Assembly (NCBI GenBank): GCA_963702425.1
Contig: CAVPCQ010000016.1
Span: 1 to 64,000, forward strand
Direction of reading: 5' to 3'
DNA from: an uncultured Acidobacteriota bacterium
Lineage (GTDB): Bacteria > Acidobacteriota > Polarisedimenticolia > J045
DNA: 64,000 nt
This document shows, in pieces, positions 40,287 to 53,405 of the stretch (its first letter is position 1; each line of letters begins with the position of its first letter). The notes below the pieces were generated by a model. That model did no database searches and was not told the DNA's origin. It saw only the letters and a program-made list of their open reading frames with translations. The position numbers were made by a program, and so were the translations under genes.

Positions 40287-40958
40287 CTACGACAGGGCCA
40301 CCTTCCGCCGCGAGCGCTCCATCCGCTCCCGCACCCGCTCCGCCACGTCCTCGGGCACCGGCCCGTGGTGCATCACGGCGCGGTCGAGGTCGATCACGTA
40401 GAGCGCGTCCTCGGAGCGCAGGATGTTGCCGAGGTTGAGGTCGCGGTGCTCGAGGCCACGCTCGAGCAGCAGCTCGCAGAAGCGCCGCGCCTCGTCCCAC
40501 AGCGCGGCGCGGCGCGCGGGGTCCCGCTCTTCCGCCAGCAGACGCGCCATGTCGATCGCGTCCTTCAGGAACGCGCTCATTCCCCAGGCCCGCCAGCCGG
40601 GCCGTGCCGGGAGCAGCACCACCCCCAGCGGTCGCGCGGTCGGGACGCCGGCCGCCGCGGCGAGCCGGCCGGTCTCCAGCTCCGCCACGAAGCGCTCGCA
40701 GTCGAAATAGCGCTCGCGGTTGAAGCTGGCGACGACGCCGCCGCGCAGGTACTGCTTGACCAGCAGCGCCGGTCCGCCGGGGATCGGCACCACGGCCCGC
40801 GGTCCGCGCCCGGTGCCCGGGCCGTCGGGTCGTGGCGCCAGCCGCTCCCAGGGCCGCCCGAGCCCGGCCGCCAGCACGGCGTCGGCGAGCGCCGCGTCGA
40901 GGACGCAGGTCGCTTCGCCCTCCTCGCGGACGACGAATCCCGGGGGGGCCACGATCAC
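40287..40958 (-). CDS. Kdo kinase / LPS kinase family protein (KdkA/InaA-like)
   Basis: Motifs GTGRG, VKQYLRGG, HRDLNLGNIL and VIDLDR. Confidence 0.82.
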   Translation of the reverse strand: MIVAPPGFVVREEGEATCVLDAALADAVLAAGLGRPWERLAPRPDGPGTGRGPRAVVPIPGGPALLVKQYLRGGVVASFNRERYFDCERFVAELETGRLAAAAGVPTARPLGVVLLPARPGWRAWGMSAFLKDAIDMARLLAEERDPARRAALWDEARRFCELLLERGLEHRDLNLGNILRSEDALYVIDLDRAVMHHGPVPEDVAERVRERMERSRRKVALS

Positions 40959-41779
40959 GCGTCCGGCCCCGCGGCGCTGCCGGCCCCGGCGCGTGGGTCG
41001 ATCGCCTCGCCCCCGGCGCGCGTCAGCTCCCAGAGCCGCGCGTATTTCATATAGACCGTCATCGCCGTGAAAGCGGCCAGCACCAGCCCCGGGCCGCCGT
41101 CGAGGAAGCCGCGCTTGAGCACGTACGCCCGCACGAAGCGCGCGATCGGCCGACTGAAGACGGTGAAGGCCGAGGCCCGCCGGCCGCGCCGGTGCGCCTC
41201 GCGCGCACCGGCCTCGGCCCAGCGCCAGGCTTTCGGCACGTACTGCGGGAAGGAGCGGAAGGTGTCGTGCAGCAGCGGCGCGGCCAGCGCCGGGAGCGGC
41301 CCGGGCAGATCGATCTCCTCGTGCACCAGCCGGTCGTCGTAGCGCGCCGTGTCGCGCGCGATCAGGCGGATCACCTTGTCCGTGCCCCAGCCGCCGTGCT
41401 TCATCACGCGCCCGAGGAAGCGGTTCTCGCGCGGGATCCAGCTCCCGGGCGCGGCCGGCCCGCCGGCGGCGAACAGCGCGCGCAGCTCGGAGGCCAGCGC
41501 GGGCGAGACCTGCTCGTCGGCGTCGAGGATCAGGACCCACGGGTGCTTGCACTGCGGGATCGCCCAGTTCTTCTGGCGGGCCGGCGACTCGTAGGGGTGC
41601 TCGAGGATCCGCGCGCCGTGCCCCAGCGCGAGCGCCAGCGTCCGGTCGGTCGAGCCGGAGTCGACGACCAGCAGCTCGCCTGCAAGGCCGGCCACGGACG
41701 CCAGGCAGGCTCCGATCGTCTGCTCCTCGTCGCGGGTGGTGACGAGCACCGAGATCGGCAGCGGCGGCGCGCCGCTCAC
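40955..41779 (-). CDS. Family 2 glycosyltransferase (WaaE/KdtX-like LPS core glucosyltransferase)
   Basis: Motifs VVDSGSTDRT, QKNWA, WVLILDADE, VHE and GFLDG. Confidence 0.9.
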   Translation of the reverse strand: MSGAPPLPISVLVTTRDEEQTIGACLASVAGLAGELLVVDSGSTDRTLALALGHGARILEHPYESPARQKNWAIPQCKHPWVLILDADEQVSPALASELRALFAAGGPAAPGSWIPRENRFLGRVMKHGGWGTDKVIRLIARDTARYDDRLVHEEIDLPGPLPALAAPLLHDTFRSFPQYVPKAWRWAEAGAREAHRRGRRASAFTVFSRPIARFVRAYVLKRGFLDGGPGLVLAAFTAMTVYMKYARLWELTRAGGEAIDPRAGAGSAAGPDA

Positions 41780-42549
41780 TTCGCCTCGCTCCCCTTCGGC
41801 GCCCGCGGCTGCACGACCCACGCCACGCCGATGCTCAGCAGGTAGAGCCCGATCATCGGCAGGGCGAAGATCGTCATCGTCATCATGTCCGGCGTCGGGG
41901 TCAGGATCGCCGCCAGCACGAAGATCACGAAGATCGCCTTGTCGAGCTGCTTCCACAGGCCGCGCGCGCTGACGATCCCGAACCGCGCCAGCGCCAGGGC
42001 GAGCAGCGGCATCTCGAACATCAGCCCCAGGCCCAGCAGCAGCTTGCTGGCGAACGAGAAGGCGCTGTCGACGGTGATGTGGCTCTGGAACCCGGTCCCC
42101 TGGTCGGCCAGGAACTTCGCCGCCGTGGGGACCGCGACGTAGTAGGAGAAGGCCGCGCCGGCGGCGAAGAGCAAGCTGCCAGCGGTGATCACCGGCACGA
42201 TCCAGCGCCGCTCGCGCGGGTAGAGGCCGGGCGCGACGAAGGACCAGGCCTGGTAGAGGATCATCGGCAGGCCGATGAAGATCCCGCCCAGCAGCGCGGC
42301 CTTCATCTTGTTCATGAAGGCTTCGGCCGGACGGATCACGCTGAGCTGGCCCATCGCCTGCTGGATCGGGTCGAGCAGGAAGGCGAGCAGCCGGTCGGAG
42401 AAGATCCAGGCGACGACGAACCCGATGAACACGGCGGCGGCGGCCCAGGTGACCCGGCGGCGCAACTCGTCGAGGTGGTCGAGGAACCCCATCCTGGCGC
42501 CGGCCTCGCCGGCGTCGGGGGTCGGCTCCTCGACGGGGGGAACGGTCAC
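41776..42549 (-). CDS. tatC: Twin-arginine translocase subunit TatC
   Basis: Motifs MGFLDHLDELRRR, YQAWSFVAPGLY..E, FEMP and AAILTPTPD. Confidence 0.96.
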   Translation of the reverse strand: MTVPPVEEPTPDAGEAGARMGFLDHLDELRRRVTWAAAAVFIGFVVAWIFSDRLLAFLLDPIQQAMGQLSVIRPAEAFMNKMKAALLGGIFIGLPMILYQAWSFVAPGLYPRERRWIVPVITAGSLLFAAGAAFSYYVAVPTAAKFLADQGTGFQSHITVDSAFSFASKLLLGLGLMFEMPLLALALARFGIVSARGLWKQLDKAIFVIFVLAAILTPTPDMMTMTIFALPMIGLYLLSIGVAWVVQPRAPKGSEAK

Positions 42550-42962: not shown

Positions 42963-43138
42963 CGCGGGCGCATCGTAGCGGCGCCCCCCCGGCGGGTCAA
43001 CAGAACGGCTCCGCCCCCGGAGCCGCAAGCCCTTGCCCCTCCGGCCCTTGCGTGGCGAGCGGTGCCGCTGCAGCGGTCCGGCCGACCGTCCGGCGAGGGC
43101 GATTGGGGCGAACTTCCGGCCCACCCTATACTTCCGGC

Positions 43139-44767
43139 ATGAAGCCCTCCCGCCCGCTGCTGGTCACGCTCCTCCTGGCGGCCCTCTTCGGGGCCTCCGC
43201 GATCGTCGTCGTCTCCCGCGCGGCCGCCCCGGCCGGGCCGACCCTGGGGAAGATGGGGACCTACGCCGAGATCCTCGCCCTGATCGAGGAGCGCGCGGTC
43301 CCCGAGCCCGACATGAAGCGGGTCATCTACTCCAGCATCGGCGGGATGCTCGACGTGCTCGACCCGCACACCAACTTCCTCGACGACGACAACTACCGCG
43401 AGATGCGCGAGGAGCAGAAGGGCTTCTTCTACGGGCTGGGGATCCAGATCAACAAGCGCGGCCGCTACCAGCCGCTGCGCGTCGTGGCCCCGATGGCCGG
43501 CACGCCGGCCGACCGGATGGGGATCCGCGGCGGCGACGTCATCGTGCACATCCGCGACGAGCGCGCGGGGGCCGACGTCGACACGCTGGGCCTGACGATC
43601 CAGGAGGCCGTGAAGTTCCTGCGCGGGCCGCGCGGCTCGGAGGTGGAGATCACCGTCGAGCGGCCGGGCGTCGAGGAGCCGCTGGTCTTCAAGATCCAGC
43701 GCGACGCGGTGCGCACCACGGCGGTCTCGCAGGCCTACCTGATCCGGCCCGAGACCGGCTACATCAAGATCACGAGCTTCGTCGAGAGCACCACCCCCGA
43801 GCTCGACGCCGCGATCGAGAGCCTGAAGAAGCAGGGCGCGAAGCGGCTGGTGCTCGACCTCTCCGGCAACCCGGGCGGCCTGCTCGACCAGGCGATCAAC
43901 GTCGCCAGCCGCTTCCTCCCCGCCGGCTCGCTCGTGGTCTACACCGAGGGCCGGATGGCCGGCTCGCGGCAGGACTACTTCTCGGCCAAGGACGTCCCGC
44001 ACGTCGAATGGCCGATCGTCGTGATGGTCGACCGCGAGGCGGCCTCCGCGTCGGAGATCGTCTCGGGCGCGCTGCAGGATCACGACCGCGGGATCGTCGT
44101 CGGCGAGACGACCTTCGGGAAGGGACTCGTGCAGTCGGTCTACCCGCTGTCCGAGAACACCGGCCTCGCGCTGACGACGCAGAAGTACTTCACCCCCGTG
44201 GGCCGCAGCATCCAGCGCCCCTACGCCGGCGAGGAGTCGTACTACCTCGAGTGGCGGGAGCGCGACGCGGTCCCGAAGCCGCGGGAGAATGCGCCGGTCT
44301 TCAAGACCGACACCGGGCGCACGGTCTACGGCGGCGGCGGCATCACGCCCGACGTGCCGGTGCAGATCCCGGAGTACCCCGAGGTCGTCGTCCAGCTGCT
44401 GCGGACCTCGGCCTTCCCGCGCTTCGTGACCACGCTCTCGGCGGCCGACCGGAAGAAGTACGCCGCCGACCCCGCGTCGATCCTCCCGCCGTTCACGACC
44501 TTCGTGCTGGCCGATCTGCCCGACGCCAAGGCCGAGGAGATCGCCGCCGCCAAGGACGACATCCTGGTCCAGCTGAAGGGCGAGATGGCGCTGCTCGAGG
44601 GCGGGCTCGCCGCGCGCGAGCGGGTCCTGCTCGAGAAGAACCCGGTGCTCGAGAAGGCGCTGGCCTCGTTCCCCGAGGCCGAGAAGCTGCAGAGCCTGCG
44701 CCGGGCGCTGCCGGAGACGCGGACCCAGACTGCGGAAGCGAGCGGGACCCCCGCTCAGACCAGGTAG
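43139..44767 (+). CDS. ctpA: Carboxyl-terminal processing protease (S41A, PDZ)
   Basis: Motifs LDPHT, GLGI, LDL.GNPGGLL, SASASEIV.GALQDHDR and TFGKGLVQ. TATACT lies 6 nt before the ATG. Confidence 0.92.
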   Translation: MKPSRPLLVTLLLAALFGASAIVVVSRAAAPAGPTLGKMGTYAEILALIEERAVPEPDMKRVIYSSIGGMLDVLDPHTNFLDDDNYREMREEQKGFFYGLGIQINKRGRYQPLRVVAPMAGTPADRMGIRGGDVIVHIRDERAGADVDTLGLTIQEAVKFLRGPRGSEVEITVERPGVEEPLVFKIQRDAVRTTAVSQAYLIRPETGYIKITSFVESTTPELDAAIESLKKQGAKRLVLDLSGNPGGLLDQAINVASRFLPAGSLVVYTEGRMAGSRQDYFSAKDVPHVEWPIVVMVDREAASASEIVSGALQDHDRGIVVGETTFGKGLVQSVYPLSENTGLALTTQKYFTPVGRSIQRPYAGEESYYLEWRERDAVPKPRENAPVFKTDTGRTVYGGGGITPDVPVQIPEYPEVVVQLLRTSAFPRFVTTLSAADRKKYAADPASILPPFTTFVLADLPDAKAEEIAAAKDDILVQLKGEMALLEGGLAARERVLLEKNPVLEKALASFPEAEKLQSLRRALPETRTQTAEASGTPAQTR

Positions 44768-45804
44768 GCCAGCGCGAACCCGACCTGCGCGGTCATCATC
44801 ATCAGGTACATGTGGGTCCACGACGGGTGGTTCTCCGTCGTCGCCAGCGCCTCGGGGTCGCGCAGGATCAGCCAGACGGTATAGGCGCCCCAGCTCGTCA
44901 GGAGCAGACCCAGCGCGTCGAGCGCCCAGCGGTTGCCGGTCAGGATCGCGTGGTGGCCCGCGGGATCGAAGGGGTCGGCCAGCAGCGTGCCGAGCGGGAT
45001 CAGCAGCCACGGCAGGACGAACGACGGCGCCATCATGACGGCGGCTCGCTTCACGCCGTAGCGGATCGGCAGCGTGTAGCAGCCCCCTTCCGCGTCCCCC
45101 TTCATGTCCGAGAAGTCCTTGGTGGAGGCGGCGCCGACCAGGAACAGCGCGAAGACCGCGCCGATGTACCAGGCCTCGAGCGCCCAGACCGGGCCGATCA
45201 TGCTCCAGCCGGCGACCTTGAGCAGCATCCCGCGCGGGATCGCGATCGTCACGTTGGCCCCGATCGCGTGGCGCTTGGTGCGGCCGAGCGCCGGGGCCGA
45301 ATAGACGAAGGTGAAGATCATTCCCAGGACGTAGATCACGAAGACCGCGTGCCAGAGCGTCAGCGCACCCGCCCACCCGCCCGCCCCGGCGAGCGAGGCG
45401 CGGACGCCGCCCGGCACCGTCAGGCGCTCGGCGAGGGTCTGCGCCGGGTAGATCACGACCAGCCAGGTCGGCAGCACCGCGGCGAGGTAGAGCACGATCG
45501 AGTAGTTCCACGCCGAGCGCATCGAGATCTTCCCCGACGGCAGCATCCGCTCCGGCTTGTTGATCCGGTCGATCGGCAGGTCGTAGTACTGGTTGATCAC
45601 GTTGCTCGCGGCGTTCAGCAGCGCGGCGCAGGCCGAGCCGAGCACGACGTTGAACAGCAGCGCGGCGGTGACGGCGCGCGTGGGATCGGGGTTCCAGTAG
45701 GAGCCCCAGGCGCAGATCGCGCCCGAGATCACGCCCAGCAGCGGCGGCAGGAGCGTGAAGGGGCGCGTGAAGTCGACGTAGCGTCGGAGCGTGTCCATCA
45801 TCAC
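44755..45804 (-). CDS. UbiA-family prenyltransferase with homogentisate/aromatic-PT-like motifs
   Basis: RPFTL, motif I INQYYDLPIDRINKP, YSAP, motif II KDFSDMKGD..GCYTLP and about 8 TMs. Confidence 0.9.
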   Translation of the reverse strand: MMMDTLRRYVDFTRPFTLLPPLLGVISGAICAWGSYWNPDPTRAVTAALLFNVVLGSACAALLNAASNVINQYYDLPIDRINKPERMLPSGKISMRSAWNYSIVLYLAAVLPTWLVVIYPAQTLAERLTVPGGVRASLAGAGGWAGALTLWHAVFVIYVLGMIFTFVYSAPALGRTKRHAIGANVTIAIPRGMLLKVAGWSMIGPVWALEAWYIGAVFALFLVGAASTKDFSDMKGDAEGGCYTLPIRYGVKRAAVMMAPSFVLPWLLIPLGTLLADPFDPAGHHAILTGNRWALDALGLLLTSWGAYTVWLILRDPEALATTENHPSWTHMYLMMMTAQVGFALAYLV

Positions 45805-45823
45805 GGTCGGTGTCCTGGGCGCG

Positions 45824-47170
45824 TCAGGCGGCGACGAGGGAAGCGATCAGGATCGCGACCAGGCCGCCGGCGAGCGTGTTGAGGAAGTTCTGGGCTTCGT
45901 TGTCGATCAGCTTGGCCTGCTCGAGCAGCGCGCCGAGGTAGCTCTCCAGCGTCGTGCCGACGAACGCCGCCGCGGCGACGATCGCGACCCCGCTCCCGTC
46001 GATCAGCCCGACCGCCCAGCCGAGCAGGCCGAGCACGATCGAACCGGCGATCCCGGCCAGCGTCCCCTCGAGGCTGACCGCGCCGTCGGTGCCGCGTGGC
46101 ACCGGGCGGAAGGTCGTGATCAGGAAGGTGCGGCGGCCGAAGGCCTGCCCGATCTCCGAGCCCAGCGTGTCCGACGCCGCGGTGGCGAGCGCCGCCACGA
46201 AAGCCAGCCGGAACAGGCCGTTCCCCTGCGCCGCGCCGAAGGCCAGCGCGGCGAAGAGGGCCGGCGCCCCGGCGTTGGCCCAGGCGTGCGCCGCGCCGCG
46301 GCGGCCCCCCTTGGCCTGCGCGGTCCCCTCCTTCGCCTTGGTGCGGTAGCCGACCTTGGTCGCGCCCGAGCCGAGCACGAAGAAGGCCAGCAGGATCGCG
46401 AAGCCGCCCGGGCCGAGACAGAGCCAGATCGCCGTCCCGAGCAGCACGCCGTGGATCACGCCCGAGAGGTCGACGGTCTTCAGCGCGTAGGCCAGGCCGG
46501 CGGCGGCGAGGTTCGCGCCGAGCGCCCAGGGCAGCCGCGCGAGCAGGAGGTCCTGCGCGCCCGCGATCCGCGAGAGGTCGATCAGCTGCGCCGCGTAGAG
46601 CAGGCCGCCGGCGGCCAGCGGCACGAGCAGGTTGTCGTTGATCCCGGTGTCGAGGCTCTCCAGGACCGCCAGCACCAGGCCGACGGCAAGGAACTTCAGC
46701 GCGATCGCCGGCGTGATCGCCCAGCCGCCGGTCCAGGCGAAGAGCGCCAGCGCCATCGGCACGCCGGCGACGACGAAGCCGGTGAAGCCCGCCCAGGTCT
46801 TCTCGCGGTTCCACGGGAGCGGTCCGCTGGCGGGCCCGAAGGCCCGGCCGGCGATCGTCGCCAGCCCGTCGCCGAAGGCCAGGAAGGCCCACGCCGCGGC
46901 AACGATGTCGAGCCGGTGCGGGAAGACCAGGATCAGGATCAGCACCGAGACCGCGTAGAGCACGATCCCGACGTCGAGGCCGCGTTCCTTCGCTTCGCCG
47001 CGGAAGAACTGCCGGCGCCCGAGGCGCGGCAGCACGAACAGGTTGTTGGCCAGGGCGACGAGCGCGCAGAGTGCCGCCTGCCACCAGGTGAGGTAGCGCA
47101 GCAGGAAGGCGAAGCCGCCCATCGAGATGTGCAGGAGCTTGCGGGCCAGGTCGCTGCGGAGCGCGCTCAC
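45824..47170 (-). CDS. Fusion of a CTP-dependent polyprenol (phytol/farnesol/dolichol) kinase and a DUF92 (VTE6/TMEM19-like) domain
   Basis: N-half has RKLLH, GDGLA.IAG..FG, KTWAG and DNLLVP. C-half has GGRR...AWANAG, SDTLGSEIG, GTDGAVSLEGT, ESYLGA and NFLNT. Confidence 0.88.
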   Translation of the reverse strand: MSALRSDLARKLLHISMGGFAFLLRYLTWWQAALCALVALANNLFVLPRLGRRQFFRGEAKERGLDVGIVLYAVSVLILILVFPHRLDIVAAAWAFLAFGDGLATIAGRAFGPASGPLPWNREKTWAGFTGFVVAGVPMALALFAWTGGWAITPAIALKFLAVGLVLAVLESLDTGINDNLLVPLAAGGLLYAAQLIDLSRIAGAQDLLLARLPWALGANLAAAGLAYALKTVDLSGVIHGVLLGTAIWLCLGPGGFAILLAFFVLGSGATKVGYRTKAKEGTAQAKGGRRGAAHAWANAGAPALFAALAFGAAQGNGLFRLAFVAALATAASDTLGSEIGQAFGRRTFLITTFRPVPRGTDGAVSLEGTLAGIAGSIVLGLLGWAVGLIDGSGVAIVAAAAFVGTTLESYLGALLEQAKLIDNEAQNFLNTLAGGLVAILIASLVAA

Positions 47171-48159
47171 GACTTCACCCGCGCGGGACCGGCGTCGATC
47201 AGCCAGCGCACCATCGCCGTCAGCCCGTCCCGGGCCGGCGTCACCGTGTAGCCCAGCTCGCGCTCGGCGCGCGCCGAGCTGAGCGCCCACTCGTGGCGGT
47301 AGATCGCGACCTCCCCGTCGGTCATCATCGGCTCGATCCCGGTCAGCGGCGCCTGCCAGCGCAGCACGCGGCCGAGGGCAGCCGCCACGCCGTACGGGAT
47401 CGCCCGCGACGGCGCGCGCACGCCGCCGGCTTCGGCCATGATCGCGAGCGCCTCGCGGACCGTGATGTTCTCGCCGCCGAGGACGTAGCGCGATCCGGCC
47501 TGCGCCTTTTCCAGCGCGAGCAGGAACCCGCGCGCGACGTCGTCCACCTGCGCCAGGCACTGCCGGCGGTCGCCGGGGCCGACGGTGCCGGGCAGCTTCC
47601 CCGCGAGCAGGTCGCGCGCCACGCCGGCGAGGATGTTCCCGTCCGTCAGGCGCCCCGGCCCGTAGACCACCCCCGGGTAGACCACGACCAGGTTCTCGCC
47701 TCCGGCCTGCCGCTCGCGCGCCCGCCGGTCGGCGGCCAGCTTCGTGCGCTCGTAGTCGTTGCGCGGCGCGCCGTCGTGGACGTTGTCCTCGTCGCCGATC
47801 CGGCCGTCGGTCGGACCCAGGGCGATGAACGACGAGCAGTAGATCGCCTTCCCCACCCCGGCCGCCCGGGCCGCGTCGAGCAGCCGGTCGAGCCCCTCGA
47901 CGTTGACGCGGTCGAAGCGCGCGGGGTCTCTGACCCAGCGTTTGACCAGGGCCGCGCAGTGCACGACGGCGTCGCGCCCGGCGACTGCCGCAGCGAGCGA
48001 CGGGCCGTCTTCGACGTCTCCGCGCAGGACCTCGAAGGGGCCCTGCGGCGCCGCCTCGGGCCGGCGCGCCAGCAGCGCCACCCGGTGCCCCGCGGCGGAG
48101 AGGACCTCCGCCACGCGCCCGCCGAGGAAGCCGGTGCCGCCGGTGAGCAGGACCTTCAC
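47167..48159 (-). CDS. Extended SDR oxidoreductase, farnesol dehydrogenase (FLDH)/HpnA-like
   Basis: Motifs TGGTGFLG, HCAALV..W..DP.RF..VNV.GL, SSFIALGPTDG, YERTK, YPGVVYGPGRLT and RHEW. Confidence 0.85.
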   Translation of the reverse strand: MKVLLTGGTGFLGGRVAEVLSAAGHRVALLARRPEAAPQGPFEVLRGDVEDGPSLAAAVAGRDAVVHCAALVKRWVRDPARFDRVNVEGLDRLLDAARAAGVGKAIYCSSFIALGPTDGRIGDEDNVHDGAPRNDYERTKLAADRRARERQAGGENLVVVYPGVVYGPGRLTDGNILAGVARDLLAGKLPGTVGPGDRRQCLAQVDDVARGFLLALEKAQAGSRYVLGGENITVREALAIMAEAGGVRAPSRAIPYGVAAALGRVLRWQAPLTGIEPMMTDGEVAIYRHEWALSSARAERELGYTVTPARDGLTAMVRWLIDAGPARVKS

Positions 48160-49049
48160 GACACGCCCTGCGGCGGAAACTCGGCCAGGTACTCGCGCGC
48201 CGCGTCGGTCCACGGCCGCGGGACCCAGCCGAAGCGGCCCGCGAACAGCCCGGTCGCGAGCGGGGTCGCCGCCGGACGCGCCGCCGGCAGGTCGAGCGAC
48301 TCCGGCGCGACGGGCTCGACCCGCGCCGGATCGCCCCCCGCCAGCCGGACCACCTCGCGCGCGAAGGCGAAGCGCGAGACGGCTCCGCCGTTGGCGAAGT
48401 GGAACAGGCCGGTCGCGTCGGGATCGGTGATCAGCGCCTCGATCGCGCGCGCGATGTCGCGGTTGTAGGTCGGCTTGGTGACCCAGCCGTCGATCGACCG
48501 GATCGCGCCCCCGCCCGCGACCGCTTCGCGTGCGATCCGGTCGAAGAAGGTCTCGCGCCCGGGGCCGAAGACGAACGAGATCCGCAGCACGACCGCGTCC
48601 GCCAGCTTGCTGAGGATCGCCTCCTCCCCGTGGAGCTTGCTGCGCCCGTAGGCGTTGACCGGCGCGGTGAGGTCCTCCTCGACGTACTCGCGCCCGGCCG
48701 TCCCGTCAAAGACGTAGTCGGTCGAGATGTGAATCAGCCGCCGGCGGCCGCGCGTGCAGATCGCGGCCAGGTTCGCGGCCCCCTCGGCGTTGACCTCCTC
48801 CGCCGTCTCGGGATCCTGCTCGGCCTCGTCGACGTTCGACATCGCGGCGCAGTTGATGACCACCGTCGGGTCGAGGCGCTCGATGTCCAGCTCCGTCGCC
48901 CACCGGTCGGCGATGTCCATTTCCGTCCGCGAGGCGGAGACGGTGTGCGGGAAGCGCGCCTCGAGCCGCCCGGCCAGGGCGCTGCCGACGAGGCCGTCGG
49001 CGCCGATGATCATCGGCCGGATCGCAAGGTTGGGGTCGGTGGCGGTCAC
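48156..49049 (-). CDS. rfbD: dTDP-4-dehydrorhamnose reductase
   Basis: Motifs GADGLVG, INCAA, VDEAE, HISTDYVFDG and NAYGRSKL.GE. Confidence 0.88.
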   Translation of the reverse strand: MTATDPNLAIRPMIIGADGLVGSALAGRLEARFPHTVSASRTEMDIADRWATELDIERLDPTVVINCAAMSNVDEAEQDPETAEEVNAEGAANLAAICTRGRRRLIHISTDYVFDGTAGREYVEEDLTAPVNAYGRSKLHGEEAILSKLADAVVLRISFVFGPGRETFFDRIAREAVAGGGAIRSIDGWVTKPTYNRDIARAIEALITDPDATGLFHFANGGAVSRFAFAREVVRLAGGDPARVEPVAPESLDLPAARPAATPLATGLFAGRFGWVPRPWTDAAREYLAEFPPQGVS

Positions 49050-49089
49050 GCGCGGATTCTAGCAAGGAAGCGGACGGGCGCCGGGCCCG

Positions 49090-51576
49090 TCAGTTCCCGA
49101 CCTCCTGATTGAGGTCGAACAGCTTGCCGATCCCGGAGAGGTTGACCGTCAGGAGCAGGTTCCGGCGGTTGTTGTCGACGAAGTTCCGCGTGTCGAGCCC
49201 GAGCTGGATCGAGCAGCACTGCGTCGTCCAGCGCAGCTGGTAGAGGTAGTGGTCGAGCTGCGAGGTCTCGAGGTTGTAGTCCCAGGCCGCCTCGAGCGAC
49301 AGGCCGCGCACGATCCGCGCGATCCCCAGCTGCGTGCGCAGGAAGTCCGTCGGGAGGTCGAGCGGCCGGACGGAATTGCGCTTGTACCACGAGCCGCGGA
49401 AGTAGCCGCCGCGGAACCCCATCATCGCCGAGATGCTGGTCTCGGCCAGCTTGTCGTTGGCGACGTCGAAGACGTAGGAGAGGTCGACCGACTGCTGGTA
49501 GGTCGGGTTGAAGCGGCCGGTGATCGCGATCGGGGAGTACTGCCGCGTGTCGACGATCTGCTGCCGGTTCAGCGACTCGCCGGTTGTCGGGTCGACGAGC
49601 AGCGCCCAGAGGTTGCTCAGCGGCTGGTCGAGCGAGTACTGCTGCGAGATCTGCAGGCTGCCGATCTCGGTCGGTGTCAGGTTCTCCGCGACCTCGATCG
49701 CCTCGGCCACACCGGGCTTGCCGGCCTCCTCGAGGGCGCGGCGGGCCTCTCTCGCCGACTGCTCCTCGAGGTCGGAGAGCGAGAGCTTCTCGGTCGAGGG
49801 GACGCCGAAGGTGCGGCCGGTGTCGGGCCCACGCAGCGCATAGAAGCGGGTCCGCACGCCGTAGGTGAAGAGCGAGAGCTGGCCCGGGACGGTGTCGACG
49901 TCGTCGAACGGGATGATCTTCAGCGGGTCGATCCCCGAGTCGGGACGCCAGTCGTAGCGGAAGAACGGCTCGACGACGTTCTTGAGCTTCGGGGAGAAAC
50001 CCCACCGCGGGGTCTCCCAGACGCGCTGGAAGCGCGGCCCGATGAAGCCGATCCCGACGTTCCACAGGGTGCGCGTCAGGTTCTCGTTCACGAACACCGG
50101 GGCCCGGCGCGGCGGCTCGCCCGGTCCCGGCGGCGGGAGCTGCTGCGCCGTGTAGTGGGTCCAGCGCCCGCCGGCATTGATCGTCAGGTCGGCCCACGGG
50201 ACGTTCAGGAGCGGCATCTGGAGTTGCGGAAAGACGTCGATCCGCTGCCAGGTGACGTCCGCCAGGGTCAGCAGATCGTCCTCGTTCTTCTCGCCGGCCG
50301 TGCCCTCGGGGGGGCCGAGGATGGCCCGCCGGAAGCTGCCGGCCGACCCCTCGAAGAGCACGAAGACCGGCGAGCGGCCGATCCGGTGGCTGGCGCTGCG
50401 GATCTCGAGCTCGGGTCGCCTTTCGTTGATCGTCTCGCGCGCGATCAGGGTCTCGTCCGTCAGGAGGTTGGTGATCGGAAAGTACTGCTTGAGCCGGCTG
50501 GCCCGCGCCGCGAGCGAGTACCAGGACCACTGCCGCGTCAGGTCGAGCCAGGAGGAAACCTGCGGGTTCGAGGCCTCGTCGAGGTCGACGACGTAGTCGG
50601 TCAGGTAGTCGAAGTCGGACAGCGCCTCGAGCTGCAGGCGCATCTTCCAGGTGTCGCCGAGCGGCTGGACCTGGCGCCACTCCCCGATGTAGCGGTTCTC
50701 GGCACGGTCCGTGTCGCGGATGTAGTTCGCGATCCCCCGGGCCCGGCCGCGCCAGGTCGGGAACCAGTTCAGCTCCGCTCCCAGTCCGGGGCCGACCTGG
50801 CTGTGCCAGTCGAAGAGCAGCAACAGGTCGGCGTTGTCGGCGAAGGCCCAGAAGAACGGCACCGAGATCGTCTGCCCGAGCGTGGTCGAGGTGCTGAACG
50901 AGGGGAACAGCAGGCCCGTGGCGCGGTCGGTCTTGATCGGCCAGATGAGGTAGGGGGTGTAGAAGATCGGGACCTTGCCGACCCTGAACGCGGCGTCGCG
51001 GAGGTGCGCGTACTGGCCGATCGTCAGCGTCGCGCTGCGGACCCGGAACGACCAGTAGGGGGTCGGCTGGCTGCAGGTGGTGAACGTTGCGTGGGTGACG
51101 CGCAGGTCCTGCGGCCCGATCCGCTCGATCGTCGCCGCGCGCACGACCGCGTTGTCCTGGTCGAGGTAGCCGACCGCTTCCTCGACGACGCCGAGCTGGG
51201 TCTCGATGTTGTAGACCAGCCGGGTGCCGGAGAGCGTCGCGCCCGGAAAGGCGAGCACGACGTTGCCGGTCGCCACGACCTGCCGGGTGGCTACCGTGTA
51301 GACGATCTCGTCGGCCTGGATCGAGCTGTCGCCGGCCTTCAGGTCGACGTAGCCGCTGAGGCGCCACTCCGTCTCGGTGCGCACGGCCTGGCCGGCCCGC
51401 AAGGACGCCGACTCGGGCAGCTCCAGCTGAAGCTCGGGCTTCGCCATGCGCGGCTCCTCGGCGAGCGCCGGGAGCAACGCGGAAAGGATCGCCAGGAGCG
51501 CGCAAGCGAGGAGCAGACCGCTGCGGCCCGCCGGGCGCAACACGCCGGCGGCCGCCGGGTGACGCTCCGACGGCAT
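49090..51576 (-). CDS. lptD: LPS-assembly outer-membrane protein LptD
   Basis: Signal peptide, an OstA-like region (IQADEI), ATFTTC..P.PYW, PIFYTPY, RATGLLFP and a beta-barrel ending in QCCS. Confidence 0.9.
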   Translation of the reverse strand: MPSERHPAAAGVLRPAGRSGLLLACALLAILSALLPALAEEPRMAKPELQLELPESASLRAGQAVRTETEWRLSGYVDLKAGDSSIQADEIVYTVATRQVVATGNVVLAFPGATLSGTRLVYNIETQLGVVEEAVGYLDQDNAVVRAATIERIGPQDLRVTHATFTTCSQPTPYWSFRVRSATLTIGQYAHLRDAAFRVGKVPIFYTPYLIWPIKTDRATGLLFPSFSTSTTLGQTISVPFFWAFADNADLLLLFDWHSQVGPGLGAELNWFPTWRGRARGIANYIRDTDRAENRYIGEWRQVQPLGDTWKMRLQLEALSDFDYLTDYVVDLDEASNPQVSSWLDLTRQWSWYSLAARASRLKQYFPITNLLTDETLIARETINERRPELEIRSASHRIGRSPVFVLFEGSAGSFRRAILGPPEGTAGEKNEDDLLTLADVTWQRIDVFPQLQMPLLNVPWADLTINAGGRWTHYTAQQLPPPGPGEPPRRAPVFVNENLTRTLWNVGIGFIGPRFQRVWETPRWGFSPKLKNVVEPFFRYDWRPDSGIDPLKIIPFDDVDTVPGQLSLFTYGVRTRFYALRGPDTGRTFGVPSTEKLSLSDLEEQSAREARRALEEAGKPGVAEAIEVAENLTPTEIGSLQISQQYSLDQPLSNLWALLVDPTTGESLNRQQIVDTRQYSPIAITGRFNPTYQQSVDLSYVFDVANDKLAETSISAMMGFRGGYFRGSWYKRNSVRPLDLPTDFLRTQLGIARIVRGLSLEAAWDYNLETSQLDHYLYQLRWTTQCCSIQLGLDTRNFVDNNRRNLLLTVNLSGIGKLFDLNQEVGN

Positions 51577-51693
51577 CGCTCTCCTCCGTGAGTCGCGGAA
51601 GAATAGCGAGTTCGTCGCCGCGGCATCAACCTTCCGCGCCCCGGGGCGGTCCCGCGGGGCCGGTGCTACCATCCCGCCCCCGGAGGATCGCGC

Positions 51694-52569
51694 GTGCGGA
51701 TCGCCCTGGCCCAGACCGACCCGCGCCTCGCGGACGTCGAGGCCAACCTCGCCGGGATCGAGGAAACGGTGGCCGCGGCCCTCGCCGGCGGCGCCGACCT
51801 CGCGGTCTTCCCCGAGCTGGCGCTGACCGGTTATCGGCTGCGCGATCTGGTGCCGCAGGTCGCGGTGCGGCTCGACCGCGCGGGGCCGGTGCGCGACCGG
51901 CTCGCGGCCCTCTCCGAGCGCCTGCCGTTCGTCGTCGGGCTGGTCGAGGAGTCGGCCGACCACCGCTTCTACAACGCGGCGGCCTGGTTCGAGGACGGCC
52001 GGCTGGTCCACGTCCACCGCAAGGTCTACCTCCCGACCTACGGGATGTTCGACGAAGCGATGGACTTCGCCCGCGGCCGCCGGCTGGCGGCGTTCGACAC
52101 CCGCTTCGGGCGGGCCGGCATCCTGGTCTGCGAAGACCTCTGGCACCCGACCGCGACGACCGTCCTGGCGCTCGACGGGGCGGTCATGGTCTACGGGATC
52201 GCGGCCAGCCCGCTGCGCGGCCAGGGGGTCGGCTCGGCCGACCCGTCGCACCTTTCGGGCCGGCAGTTGGCCGAGGTCCTGGCGCGCTTCCACACCGTGC
52301 CGGTGGTCTACGTCAACCGCAGCGGGTACGAGGAGGGGCTGGCCTTCGGCGGCGGCAGCTTCGCGATCGGCGCGATGGGCGAGACGCTGGCCGAGGCGCC
52401 GCTGCTCGAGCCGGCGCTGGTGATCGCGACGATCGACCCCGACCGGACCCGCGCTGCGCGCGCGGCCTACCCGCTGGTGCGCGACGAGCGGCCGGGCCTG
52501 CTGGCGCGCGAGCTGCGGCGGATCGCGCGGGGCGAGGGGCTCGAGGCGGACGAGGAGGACGGGCGATGA
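51694..52569 (+). CDS. Carbon-nitrogen hydrolase (nitrilase fold), probable glutaminase subunit of a two-subunit NAD synthetase
   Basis: E-K-C triad in FPELALTGY, RKVYLPTYGMFDE and VCEDLW. ATGA overlap with nadE. Confidence 0.88.
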   Translation: MRIALAQTDPRLADVEANLAGIEETVAAALAGGADLAVFPELALTGYRLRDLVPQVAVRLDRAGPVRDRLAALSERLPFVVGLVEESADHRFYNAAAWFEDGRLVHVHRKVYLPTYGMFDEAMDFARGRRLAAFDTRFGRAGILVCEDLWHPTATTVLALDGAVMVYGIAASPLRGQGVGSADPSHLSGRQLAEVLARFHTVPVVYVNRSGYEEGLAFGGGSFAIGAMGETLAEAPLLEPALVIATIDPDRTRAARAAYPLVRDERPGLLARELRRIARGEGLEADEEDGR

Positions 52570-53405
52570 GCGAGCGGATCGAAGTCACCTCCCCGCTCGA
52601 GCTGCCCGACCTCGAGAAGCTGCTGGTCGGCTTCCTGCGCGAGGAGATCGGCAAGGCGGGGTTCGCACGCGGGGTGGTCGGCGTCTCGGGCGGGCTCGAC
52701 TCGGCGGTGGTCCTGCTGCTCGCGGCGCGCGCGCTGGGGCCGGAGCACGTGCTGGGGCTGCTCCTCCCCTACCGGGCTTCCTCCGAGGACAGCGTGCGCG
52801 ACGCCCGCGCGGTGCTCGCGGTGGCCGGGAGCCCGTCGGAGGAGATCGACATCTCGCCGATGGTCGACGCCTTCGCGGCGGCGGCCGCATGCGACGACGC
52901 GCTGCGGCTGGGCAACCGGATGGCGCGCGAGCGGATGGCGCTGCTGTACGACCGCGCGGCGCGCGACCGGGCGCTGGTCGTCGGGACCTCGAACAAGACC
53001 GAGTTGCTGCTGGGCTACTCGACCCGCTGGGGCGACGGCGCCTACGACCTCAATCCGATCGGCGACCTCTACAAGAAGCAGGTCCGCGCGCTCGGTGCGC
53101 ACCTCGGCGTGCCGAAGGCGATTCTCGCGAAGGCTCCTTCGGCCGACCTCTGGCCCGGCCAGACCGACGAGGCCGAGCTGGGCCTGACCTACGCCGACGC
53201 CGACCGGATCCTCTGGTACCTCGTCGACCAGCGCGGCCGCCCGGAGCGCGCGGCCGAGGAGCTGGGGGTCGCGCAGGCGGCGGTCGACCGCGTGATGCGC
53301 CTGCTGACCGCGACGCAGTTCAAGCGCAACCTGCCGCTGATCTGCAAGGTCCAGCTGCGGACGATCGGGATCGACTTCCGGCTGCCGCGGGACTGGGGAC
53401 GGTAG
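52566..53405 (+). CDS. nadE: NAD+ synthetase, synthetase subunit
   Basis: Motifs SGGLDS, GNRMARERM, GTSNKTE..LGY.T.WGD, PIGDLYK and APSADLWPGQTDE. Confidence 0.95.
   Translation: MSERIEVTSPLELPDLEKLLVGFLREEIGKAGFARGVVGVSGGLDSAVVLLLAARALGPEHVLGLLLPYRASSEDSVRDARAVLAVAGSPSEEIDISPMVDAFAAAAACDDALRLGNRMARERMALLYDRAARDRALVVGTSNKTELLLGYSTRWGDGAYDLNPIGDLYKKQVRALGAHLGVPKAILAKAPSADLWPGQTDEAELGLTYADADRILWYLVDQRGRPERAAEELGVAQAAVDRVMRLLTATQFKRNLPLICKVQLRTIGIDFRLPRDWGR

Follow-up and report, generated by a model that had tools for sequence, protein, structure and literature searches.

The window analysed here is a 64,000-nt stretch of contig CAVPCQ010000016.1 (assembly GCA_963702425.1) from an uncultured Acidobacteriota bacterium, and the subject of this analysis is a compact group of three genes within it that encode a short-chain dehydrogenase/reductase (SDR) of the extended type, a two-domain membrane protein and a UbiA-superfamily prenyltransferase. 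These genes follow rmlD (rfbD) in a co-oriented minus-strand run that lies behind an lptD-like gene. The run opens with rmlD (48156..49049), a dTDP-4-dehydrorhamnose reductase gene matching TIGR01214, and continues with the 330-aa SDR (47167..48159; PF01370), which is HpnA-like but belongs to a distinct subfamily, the 448-aa fusion protein (45824..47170), and the 349-aa UbiA (44755..45804; PF01040), which falls on a branch resembling digeranylgeranylglyceryl phosphate synthase (DGGGPS) and ChlG. Base-by-base reading and domain calls divide the fusion into a polytopic N-terminal membrane domain of the CTP_transf_1 superfamily, a putative prenol kinase (residues 1-215; 46526..47170), and a C-terminal DUF92/TIGR00297 domain, a putative prenyl-phosphate kinase (residues 216-448 plus the stop codon; 45824..46525). 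All four genes of the original prediction were recovered, in the list of open reading frames and in the base-by-base reading alike. So were their junctions: the GTG start of the SDR (48159-48157) lies over the rmlD stop TGA (48158-48156) in a GTGA overlap, the GTG of the fusion (47170-47168) lies over the SDR stop TGA (47169-47167) in a second, and a spacer of 19 bp (45805-45823) separates the fusion stop from the ubiA GTG. The gene overlaps imply co-translation.

The C-terminal half of the fusion is readily classified. Residues 221-435 score 191.8 bits against PF01940 (cut-off 27.5) and the C half reaches 208.7 bits against TIGR00297 (cut-off 205.85), which upholds the earlier assignment of a DUF92/VTE6-family domain; the fusion is also the only DUF92 protein of the genome. 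Two papers (PMC9782597, PMC10849223) place VTE6, which is the phytyl-phosphate kinase of plants, in DUF92/COG1836. Judged by these model matches, the C-terminal domain is a member of the VTE6 family and a candidate prenyl-phosphate kinase. Across 25 sequences, K63, G67, R76, D119, E124, G126, G145, G148 and G154 of this domain are invariant, and an alignment of the DUF92 halves matches a CdsA alignment in hhalign with 90.1% probability and an E-value of 1.6e-6.

The N-terminal domain is more divergent, and the CTP_transf_1 label originally given to it stands at the level of profile comparison but receives no recognition from Pfam, which returned neither a PF01148 row nor any other relevant match for fusion residues 1-220, even at E<=10. 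We aligned the window sequence with 36 relatives (26 N-halves or standalone genes from the fetched loci and 10 short proteins); D101, G108, G128, E171, D179 and N180 show no variation in these 37 sequences, and K124 shows very little. Weak PF01148 (CTP_transf_1) rows appear for 13 of the 37, with a best E-value of 2.8e-5, and the N-domain of a 51% identical orthologue from genome G117 comes close to the cut-off of 24 with 22.5 bits (E 1.3e-4). Against a profile built from 14 CdsA sequences of the window's genome and related ones, the N-domain profile gives an hhalign probability of 94.8% (E 4.9e-8) over 86 columns, pairing its GDGxAxxxG and KTWxG motifs with the invariant D152 and K175-T176-x2-G179 of CdsA. 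The match ends at CdsA column 229 of 266, ahead of the invariant C-terminal block of CdsA (K233-D234...P240-G241-H242-G243-G244...D247-R248); the N-domain is 215 aa long. Compared directly, the N and C halves of the fusion give only 43% (E 2.5e-4). From these profile comparisons we conclude that the fusion is probably a tandem of two CTP_transf_1-superfamily domains.

Other searches with the N-domain were less informative. Its AlphaFold (AF2) model has a pLDDT of 94.4, and Foldseek returned no PDB row at E<=0.001 for it; CdsA 4q2e stood at rank 8 as a weak match (E 0.73, probability 0.60). The top row of the VIA wide comparison, CarS 5guf (Z 5.6, root-mean-square deviation 3.0, 103 residues), was likewise weak and tied with unrelated chains. 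Neither phmmer nor a profile search of the PDB, using the fusion or the N-domain alignment, gave anything useful, and NCBIfam gave nothing consistent on the 37 N-domain relatives. A whole-library profile search matched 13085 proteins at E<=0.001, and the 150 listed among them were close relatives without names. A search for shorter, standalone N-domains yielded 27 matches, none with a precomputed Pfam family; one standalone relative has been named 'dolichol kinase' by JGI. Standalone homologues of ~180-200 aa, 36-41% identical, also occur in Planctomycetota (L057, L058, L060, L061), where the fetched flanking DNA contains no DUF92 half.

By analogy, the N-terminal domain would be of the dolichol/phytol-kinase kind, on the strength of an archaeal precedent, the single JGI name and motifs that appear to resemble those of VTE5. 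The precedent claimed in the original prediction for a kinase-DUF92 fusion does exist: the same architecture was predicted in archaea, in arCOG02245 fusions such as Mbar_A3310 of Methanosarcina barkeri, as described in the available text of Makarova et al. 2015 (PMC5898192). According to that text, HHpred relates the N-domain of the Methanosarcina fusion to COG0170 dolichol kinase (99.85%) and pfam01940 to pfam01148 (97.57%), and aspartates are conserved in both domains; the function given there is a prediction only (PMC5898192).

The prenyltransferase was confirmed as a UbiA-superfamily member, scoring 99.1 bits against PF01040 (cut-off 34.2) with both Asp-rich diphosphate-binding motifs intact. 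It reaches no NCBIfam cut-off, the best rows being ChlG (96.6 bits, cut-off 313) and PRK12884 (96.2 bits, cut-off 269). Its scores against (bacterio)chlorophyll synthase models NF005742, TIGR01476 and TIGR02056 are 96.6 versus 313, 77.8 versus 212.3 and 53.6 versus 436 bits, and those against DGGGPS models NF009521, NF009522 and NF009512 are 87 versus 296, 66.8 versus 353 and 47 versus 278 bits. The closest solved relatives are the Methanocaldococcus jannaschii DGGGPS 6m31 (3.6e-15) and chlorophyll a synthase 9sau (1.6e-11), and the motif context is near-identical to that of 6m31 (NVINxxxDxxIDRINKPxRxLPSGKI and KDFxDMxGD). Three stretches are invariant in an alignment of orthologues (22 sequences, three lineages): the first motif, N71-Q72-x2-D75-x3-D79-R80-x-N82-K83; the second, K229-D230-F231-x-D233-x2-G236-D237; and a C-terminal block, E324-N325-H326-x2-W329, which is part of a subfamily-specific ENH(P/V)xW.HMY motif. 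The Gln that follows N71 in place of the usual Asp is, to judge from this alignment, a mark of the subfamily. Beyond the first motif and ahead of the conserved helix that comes next, residues ~117-150 form a lineage-specific insert that is long in the window's clade, shorter in the Thermoanaerobaculia type and absent from the Terriglobia and Vicinamibacterales types.

Homologue searches returned automatic names only for this UbiA, several close homologues being called 'geranylgeranylglycerol-phosphate geranylgeranyltransferase' by JGI. The genome holds three further UbiA genes: the heme O synthase CtaB (277.5 bits, cut-off 210.3), MenA (302.3 bits, cut-off 264) and a gene of DPPR-synthase-like type, with 280.6 bits on NF008977 (cut-off 234; G000:C37:375889-376479, locus L065:758-1708). 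The last of these resembles decaprenyl-phosphate phosphoribosyltransferase, best known from mycobacterial arabinan synthesis. With these three assigned, the window UbiA is the paralogue without an assigned product, that is, the orphan.

The SDR scores 127 bits against PF01370 and carries GxxGxxG, S109 and Y136-x3-K140; R32, which follows the second strand, is invariant. An arginine after the second strand of an SDR suggests NADP(H), and the invariant Arg32 suggests such a preference here. The best PDB match is 3wj7 (2.3e-45), which its depositors titled 'putative oxidoreductase'. The original prediction had likened the SDR to Arabidopsis farnesol dehydrogenase FLDH. Its nearest curated family is HpnA (TIGR03466), although with 215.6 bits it does not reach the cut-off of 367.65. 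Scores of 179-210 bits were obtained for three further SDRs linked to the module, and six of seven tested SDRs of the phylum that stand outside the module reach 452-485 bits, the seventh 238.5. In a maximum-likelihood tree of 15 fusion-adjacent SDRs and 12 SDRs of the same phylum encoded away from the fusion, the 15 stand opposite the 12 on one branch (support 99/97), so the module SDRs form a clade of their own apart from true HpnA. We also found no match to squalene-hopene cyclase (TIGR01507) in the window's genome; that genome is 91% complete, and absences reported here mean not found rather than proven. Given the sub-cut-off score, the separate clade and the lack of a detected hopene cyclase, the SDR is, as far as sequence can tell, a paralogous subfamily beside HpnA and not HpnA itself.

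The sequence segments that had been offered as FLDH-like (AALV..W..DP.RF..VNV.GL, SSF.ALG.TDG, YERTK, YPGV..GPG.LT, G.LPG and RH.W) are all present in the translation. They are not specific to FLDH: the segments are consensus across the whole SDR alignment, bona fide HpnA included, and thus do not separate FLDH from HpnA. The one pointer towards FLDH, to be taken as a lead only, comes from the Atlas: 'Dihydroflavonol-4-reductase/farnesol dehydrogenase family' is the automatic name of its nearest cluster, and the second nearest is mostly Streptophyta, both at 0.99.

Conservation of the three genes was assessed from loci and from whole genomes. With the fusion as query, 62 loci were fetched, 56 from Acidobacteriota, five from Planctomycetota and one from Bacteroidota; the Planctomycetota loci match the N-domain only and the Bacteroidota locus DUF92 only. 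Both fusion halves are present in 55 loci, to which the following counts refer (UbiA orthologues at >=150 bits). UbiA adjoins the fusion in 49 of them, lying directly downstream on the same strand in 31, downstream on the opposite strand in one, upstream within 2.5 kb in 15 and close by in two; it is missing from five and cut off by a contig end in one. In 25 loci the gene directly upstream of the fusion is an orthologous SDR; LptD likewise lies upstream in 25, and an RmlD-like gene is found within 2.5 kb upstream in 21. Three layouts recur: lptD-rmlD-SDR-fusion-UbiA, as in the window's genome; UbiA-SDR-fusion in the Terriglobia type, where neither lptD nor rmlD is present and the trio alone is conserved (13/13 comparisons); and lptD-rmlA-like-rmlB-like-rmlD-fusion-UbiA in the Thermoanaerobaculia type.

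Several of these loci carry further neighbours. At L035:2596-5999 and other Thermoanaerobaculia-type loci, an NTP_transferase gene (rmlA-like), a 4,6-dehydratase-like gene (rmlB-like) and rmlD stand just before the fusion, and a conserved 179-aa open reading frame without a Pfam family follows UbiA in 10 of 11 comparisons. A radical-SAM gene follows UbiA in 5 of 8 comparisons of the Vicinamibacterales type (e.g. L012:8360-9427).

A sample of 301 genomes of the phylum, the window's genome included, gave a similar picture (thresholds E<=1e-10 for the fusion, E<=1e-30 for UbiA and E<=1e-40 for the SDR). The fusion query matches 131 genomes, ~21 of them through DUF92 only. UbiA occurs in 98, of which 96 also match the fusion query, the exceptions being G045 and the 78%-complete G293; put the other way, only 2 of the 170 genomes lacking a fusion/DUF92 match have UbiA. 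Coordinates place UbiA and the fusion on one contig within 3 kb in 67 of the 96 genomes, on different contigs in 28 and 21 kb apart in one. The SDR is found in 93 genomes and lies directly upstream of the fusion in 46, in 15 of which UbiA is elsewhere; in some lineages, the SDR is thus tied to the kinase fusion more tightly than UbiA is. Related genomes are not independent, so the co-occurrence counts overstate the number of separate events, and linkage is argued better by the existence of three different gene orders. Overall, the arrangement exceeds chance and recurs across Acidobacteriota, and the question of synteny raised with the original prediction is answered in its favour: judged from the 55 loci, the 301-genome sample and the three gene orders, the SDR, the fusion and UbiA constitute a conserved module.

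The remaining gene of the run, rmlD, scores 227.5 bits against TIGR01214 (cut-off 224.05) and is the sole match above that cut-off in the genome, where a contig other than the module's carries rmlC and an rmlB-like gene. The simplest reading is that this gene encodes the genuine dTDP-4-dehydrorhamnose reductase of the genome, and the only one. Most likely, rmlD serves a normal rhamnose pathway and has its promoter in common with the module. Such a promoter may be marked by the TAGAAT box at 49056..49061 (read 49061-49056 on the minus strand), a -10-like element 6 nt before the rmlD GTG at 49049, just where it had been noted. A TAnnnT box lies 6-9 nt before the rmlD start in six of seven related loci compared, namely in all six that keep the lptD-rmlD layout and have an aligned start (TAGAAT in L001 and L003, TATCTT in L004 and L007, TATCCT in L005 and L008); the seventh locus, L049, shows no such box. 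The box would fit a promoter for a leaderless rmlD-SDR-fusion-ubiA transcript, and its recurrence suggests leaderless transcription in the lineage. A sigma-70 consensus scan of positions 44500-52000 found 0 sites against 0.2 expected, and the single terminator-like site detected in the same interval falls within lptD, on the opposite strand; the G+C content of the window is 70-76%.

Beyond the run, the lptD-like gene upstream (49090..51597, minus strand), of a family that serves lipopolysaccharide (LPS) assembly at the outer membrane, scores 44.5 bits against PF04453 (cut-off 22.4) and is probably outside the module. Downstream, a convergent S41 C-terminal processing peptidase gene (43052..44767, plus strand; PF03572, 171.3 bits, plus a PDZ domain) is also outside the module; its 3′ end overlaps the ubiA stop and marks the 3′ end of the gene run. 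Downstream of the peptidase lie tatC (41776..42549, minus strand; 222 bits) and a Kdo/WaaP-family LPS-kinase-like gene (40287..41552, minus strand; 40.7 bits), which add an envelope flavour to the region. On the other side of lptD, a CN_hydrolase domain (51694..52569, plus strand; 127 bits) and an NAD_synthase domain (~52500..53405, plus strand; 245 bits) are encoded in different reading frames that overlap by ~70-100 bases. In glutamine-dependent NadE both domains usually form one polypeptide, so the genes here may truly overlap, or the split may stem from a frameshift or a misassembly.

Building on the observed layout, families, motif conservation, co-occurrence and adjacency, we infer the kinase activities, substrates, nucleotide, SDR step and product of the module as follows. 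With moderate confidence, we propose that the module takes a free isoprenoid alcohol, activates it and passes the prenyl group on to an acceptor. The N-terminal dolichol/phytol-kinase-like domain would phosphorylate the prenol to a prenyl monophosphate, with CTP the probable phosphate donor by family analogy, and the fused VTE6-type DUF92 domain would add a second phosphate to give the prenyl diphosphate. The adjacent UbiA would then use this diphosphate as donor. The acceptor is probably a hydroxyl or carboxyl group, because the nearest UbiA relatives, DGGGPS and chlorophyll synthase, both make C-O bonds. The SDR would supply or remove the alcohol by prenal/prenol interconversion, or else act on the acceptor or product. 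The prenal-to-prenol direction and the envelope lipid product named in the original prediction are conceivable within this scheme.

A more specific version, which we regard as decidedly improbable, is chlorophyll-independent prenol salvage by sediment and soil Acidobacteria, leading to an O-prenylated ether or ester lipid of the envelope and co-regulated with LPS/rhamnose genes. Free isoprenoid alcohols, such as phytol or geranylgeraniol from decaying phototroph biomass, would be taken up or regenerated, one bifunctional kinase would activate them, and the DGGGPS/ChlG-related UbiA would build the isoprenoid ether- or ester-linked lipid. If true, bacteria would thereby have a route of their own to O-prenylated lipids of the archaeal style. 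The host had been thought probably non-phototrophic, and the genome agrees: neither BchH nor the type-I reaction centre PsaA/PsaB was found in it. It contains one geranylgeranyl-reductase-family gene, just at the cut-off (161.7 versus 158.8 bits).

Several observations weigh against the proposed activation and transfer of a prenol. The geranylgeranyl-reductase family does not clearly track the module, occurring in 112 of the 301 genomes (48/98 with UbiA versus 64/203 without) and never adjacent to it. In the first UbiA motif, NQ stands at the place of the ND found in most enzymes of the superfamily. The N-domain misses Pfam's own PF01148 threshold, and its predicted model matches CarS and CdsA only weakly in structure, no better than it does unrelated helical proteins. 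In the Thermoanaerobaculia-type layout no SDR orthologue stands beside the fusion, and rmlA-rmlB-rmlD take its place. UbiA lies away from the fusion in 29 of 96 genomes, and four of the adjacent pairs are convergent. At least seven genomes with a full-length fusion (G010, G011, G119, G160, G168, G238 and G281) have no UbiA at E<=1e-30. Prenyl diphosphates are in any case produced by a bacterium that has an isoprenoid pathway of its own, which leaves the source of free prenol unexplained. Finally, to our knowledge, activity has been measured for no bacterial non-phototroph member.

Among the alternatives, the one that survives best, although we consider it unlikely, assigns the module to carrier-lipid or envelope-glycan synthesis. 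The N-domain would be a polyprenol kinase of the undecaprenol/dolichol type that makes polyprenyl phosphate, UbiA would place an activated sugar phosphate on polyprenyl phosphate, like mycobacterial DPPR synthase, and the SDR and RmlD would modify the sugar; the lipid-linked sugar that results would be destined for LPS or for a different glycan of the envelope. The gene neighbourhood lends itself to this idea, with lptD upstream in 25 of the 55 loci, an RmlD-like gene within 2.5 kb in 21, and rmlA-like, rmlB-like and rmlD genes directly before the fusion in the Thermoanaerobaculia type; the Terriglobia-type trio, however, stands without lptD or rml genes, and rmlD in the window is the genome's only candidate for an ordinary rhamnose pathway. 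The SDR does belong among the extended SDRs, which include sugar-nucleotide epimerases, and archaeal DUF92 genes are linked to uppS in the available text of PMC5898192. UbiA itself argues otherwise: DPPR-synthase models NF008977 and NF008978 gave no row at E<=0.01, a separate UbiA of the genome passes NF008977 (280.6 versus 234 bits), and the best relatives are DGGGPS and ChlG. Nor would the second, VTE6-type kinase domain have any role in such a pathway.

A second alternative, clearly unlikely in our view, casts UbiA as the bacterial counterpart of DGGGPS that prenylates a glycerol-type hydroxyl to form an isoprenoid ether lipid, with the kinases supplying prenyl diphosphate and the SDR reducing a keto intermediate in the manner of an alkyl-dihydroxyacetone-phosphate reductase. 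The best solved relative, M. jannaschii DGGGPS (3.6e-15), with its near-identical motif context, the NCBIfam DGGGPS-type rows of 87-96 bits and the automatic JGI names on several close homologues all favour it. Those same models, however, remain far below their cut-offs (87 bits versus 296, 66.8 versus 353), and PcrB/geranylgeranylglyceryl phosphate (GGGP) synthase was not found in the 91%-complete genome. The Pfam model PF13685, considered as a proxy for glycerol-1-phosphate dehydrogenase, gives matches in 13 of 14 control genomes and is uninformative. We also know of no isoprenoid glycerol ethers reported from cultured Acidobacteria, though we made no specific search for them.

That the genes have no joint function and are neighbours by inherited gene order only, the SDR being simply an HpnA orthologue, is highly improbable: HpnA is indeed the nearest curated family of the SDR and shared ancestry does make the adjacency counts non-independent, but three different gene orders keep the trio or its pairs together, UbiA is almost confined to fusion-bearing genomes (96/98), the SDR falls below the HpnA cut-off where six of seven non-module SDRs score 452-485 bits, the module SDRs group in a clade of their own, and the window's genome, 91% complete, yielded no hopene cyclase.

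Returning to activation and transfer of a prenol, the module is attractive in several respects. It is compact and widely conserved, with both kinase domains in one protein beside a likely consumer, the orphan UbiA, and a likely partner reductase, and it represents a directly testable system of few genes. It could reveal a prenylated lipid of the Acidobacteria, a dominant but poorly cultured phylum of soil and sediment, and it would provide a ready-made bifunctional enzyme through which cheap prenols could enter engineered isoprenoid pathways. According to a 2022 review (PMC9782597) and a 2024 paper (PMC10849223), experiments have identified genes for prenol and prenyl-phosphate kinases in plants, in cyanobacteria and, recently, in Plasmodium, but in no other organisms, and the salvage pathway is called 'missing' elsewhere. 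Parts of the present system are already known, namely the fusion architecture as an archaeal prediction in the text available from PMC5898192, and VTE5, VTE6 and FOLK as characterised enzymes of plants and cyanobacteria. No description of an SDR-fusion-UbiA module in bacteria was found in the literature searched, which excluded supplementary tables (e.g. Table 3 of PMC5898192).

Compared with known systems, the window SDR shares with HpnA, the 'hopanoid-associated sugar epimerase', the extended SDR type and the same motif set, and HpnA is its best-scoring curated model; it differs in its score (215.6 bits versus 367.65), its separate clade and the lack of a detected hopene cyclase. Similarly, the window UbiA belongs to the fold family of DGGGPS 6m31 and ChlG 9sau and has intact NxxxDxxxD and DxxDxxxD motifs. 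It departs from both in scoring far below the curated cut-offs, in its invariant Gln, its ENHPSW.HMY motif and its insert at ~117-150, and neither GGGP synthase nor chlorophyll genes were found in its 91%-complete genome.

The archaeal arCOG02245 fusions, compared by architecture as set out in the available text of PMC5898192, likewise join an N-terminal dolichol-kinase-like domain to a C-terminal pfam01940 domain. Acidic invariants are a further shared feature, represented in the module by D101, E171 and D179 of the N-domain and D119 and E124 of the C-domain. In contrast to the module, the archaeal genes are linked in that text to uppS and not to UbiA and an SDR (PMC5898192).

The plant and cyanobacterial salvage route, with phytol kinase VTE5, farnesol kinase FOLK and VTE6, offers a close biochemical parallel. 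The module departs from it in that its two kinases form one polypeptide beside a dedicated UbiA and an SDR, in that the chlorophyll genes looked for (BchH, PsaA/PsaB) were not found in the 91%-complete genome, and in that its N-domain is too divergent for PF01148. The likeness lies in two successive phosphorylations, predicted here, by polytopic membrane enzymes of the CTP_transf_1 superfamily, with the C-domain belonging to the VTE6 family (DUF92/COG1836), and in a product that would feed a UbiA-family enzyme, as phytyl diphosphate feeds HPT, MenA and ChlG.

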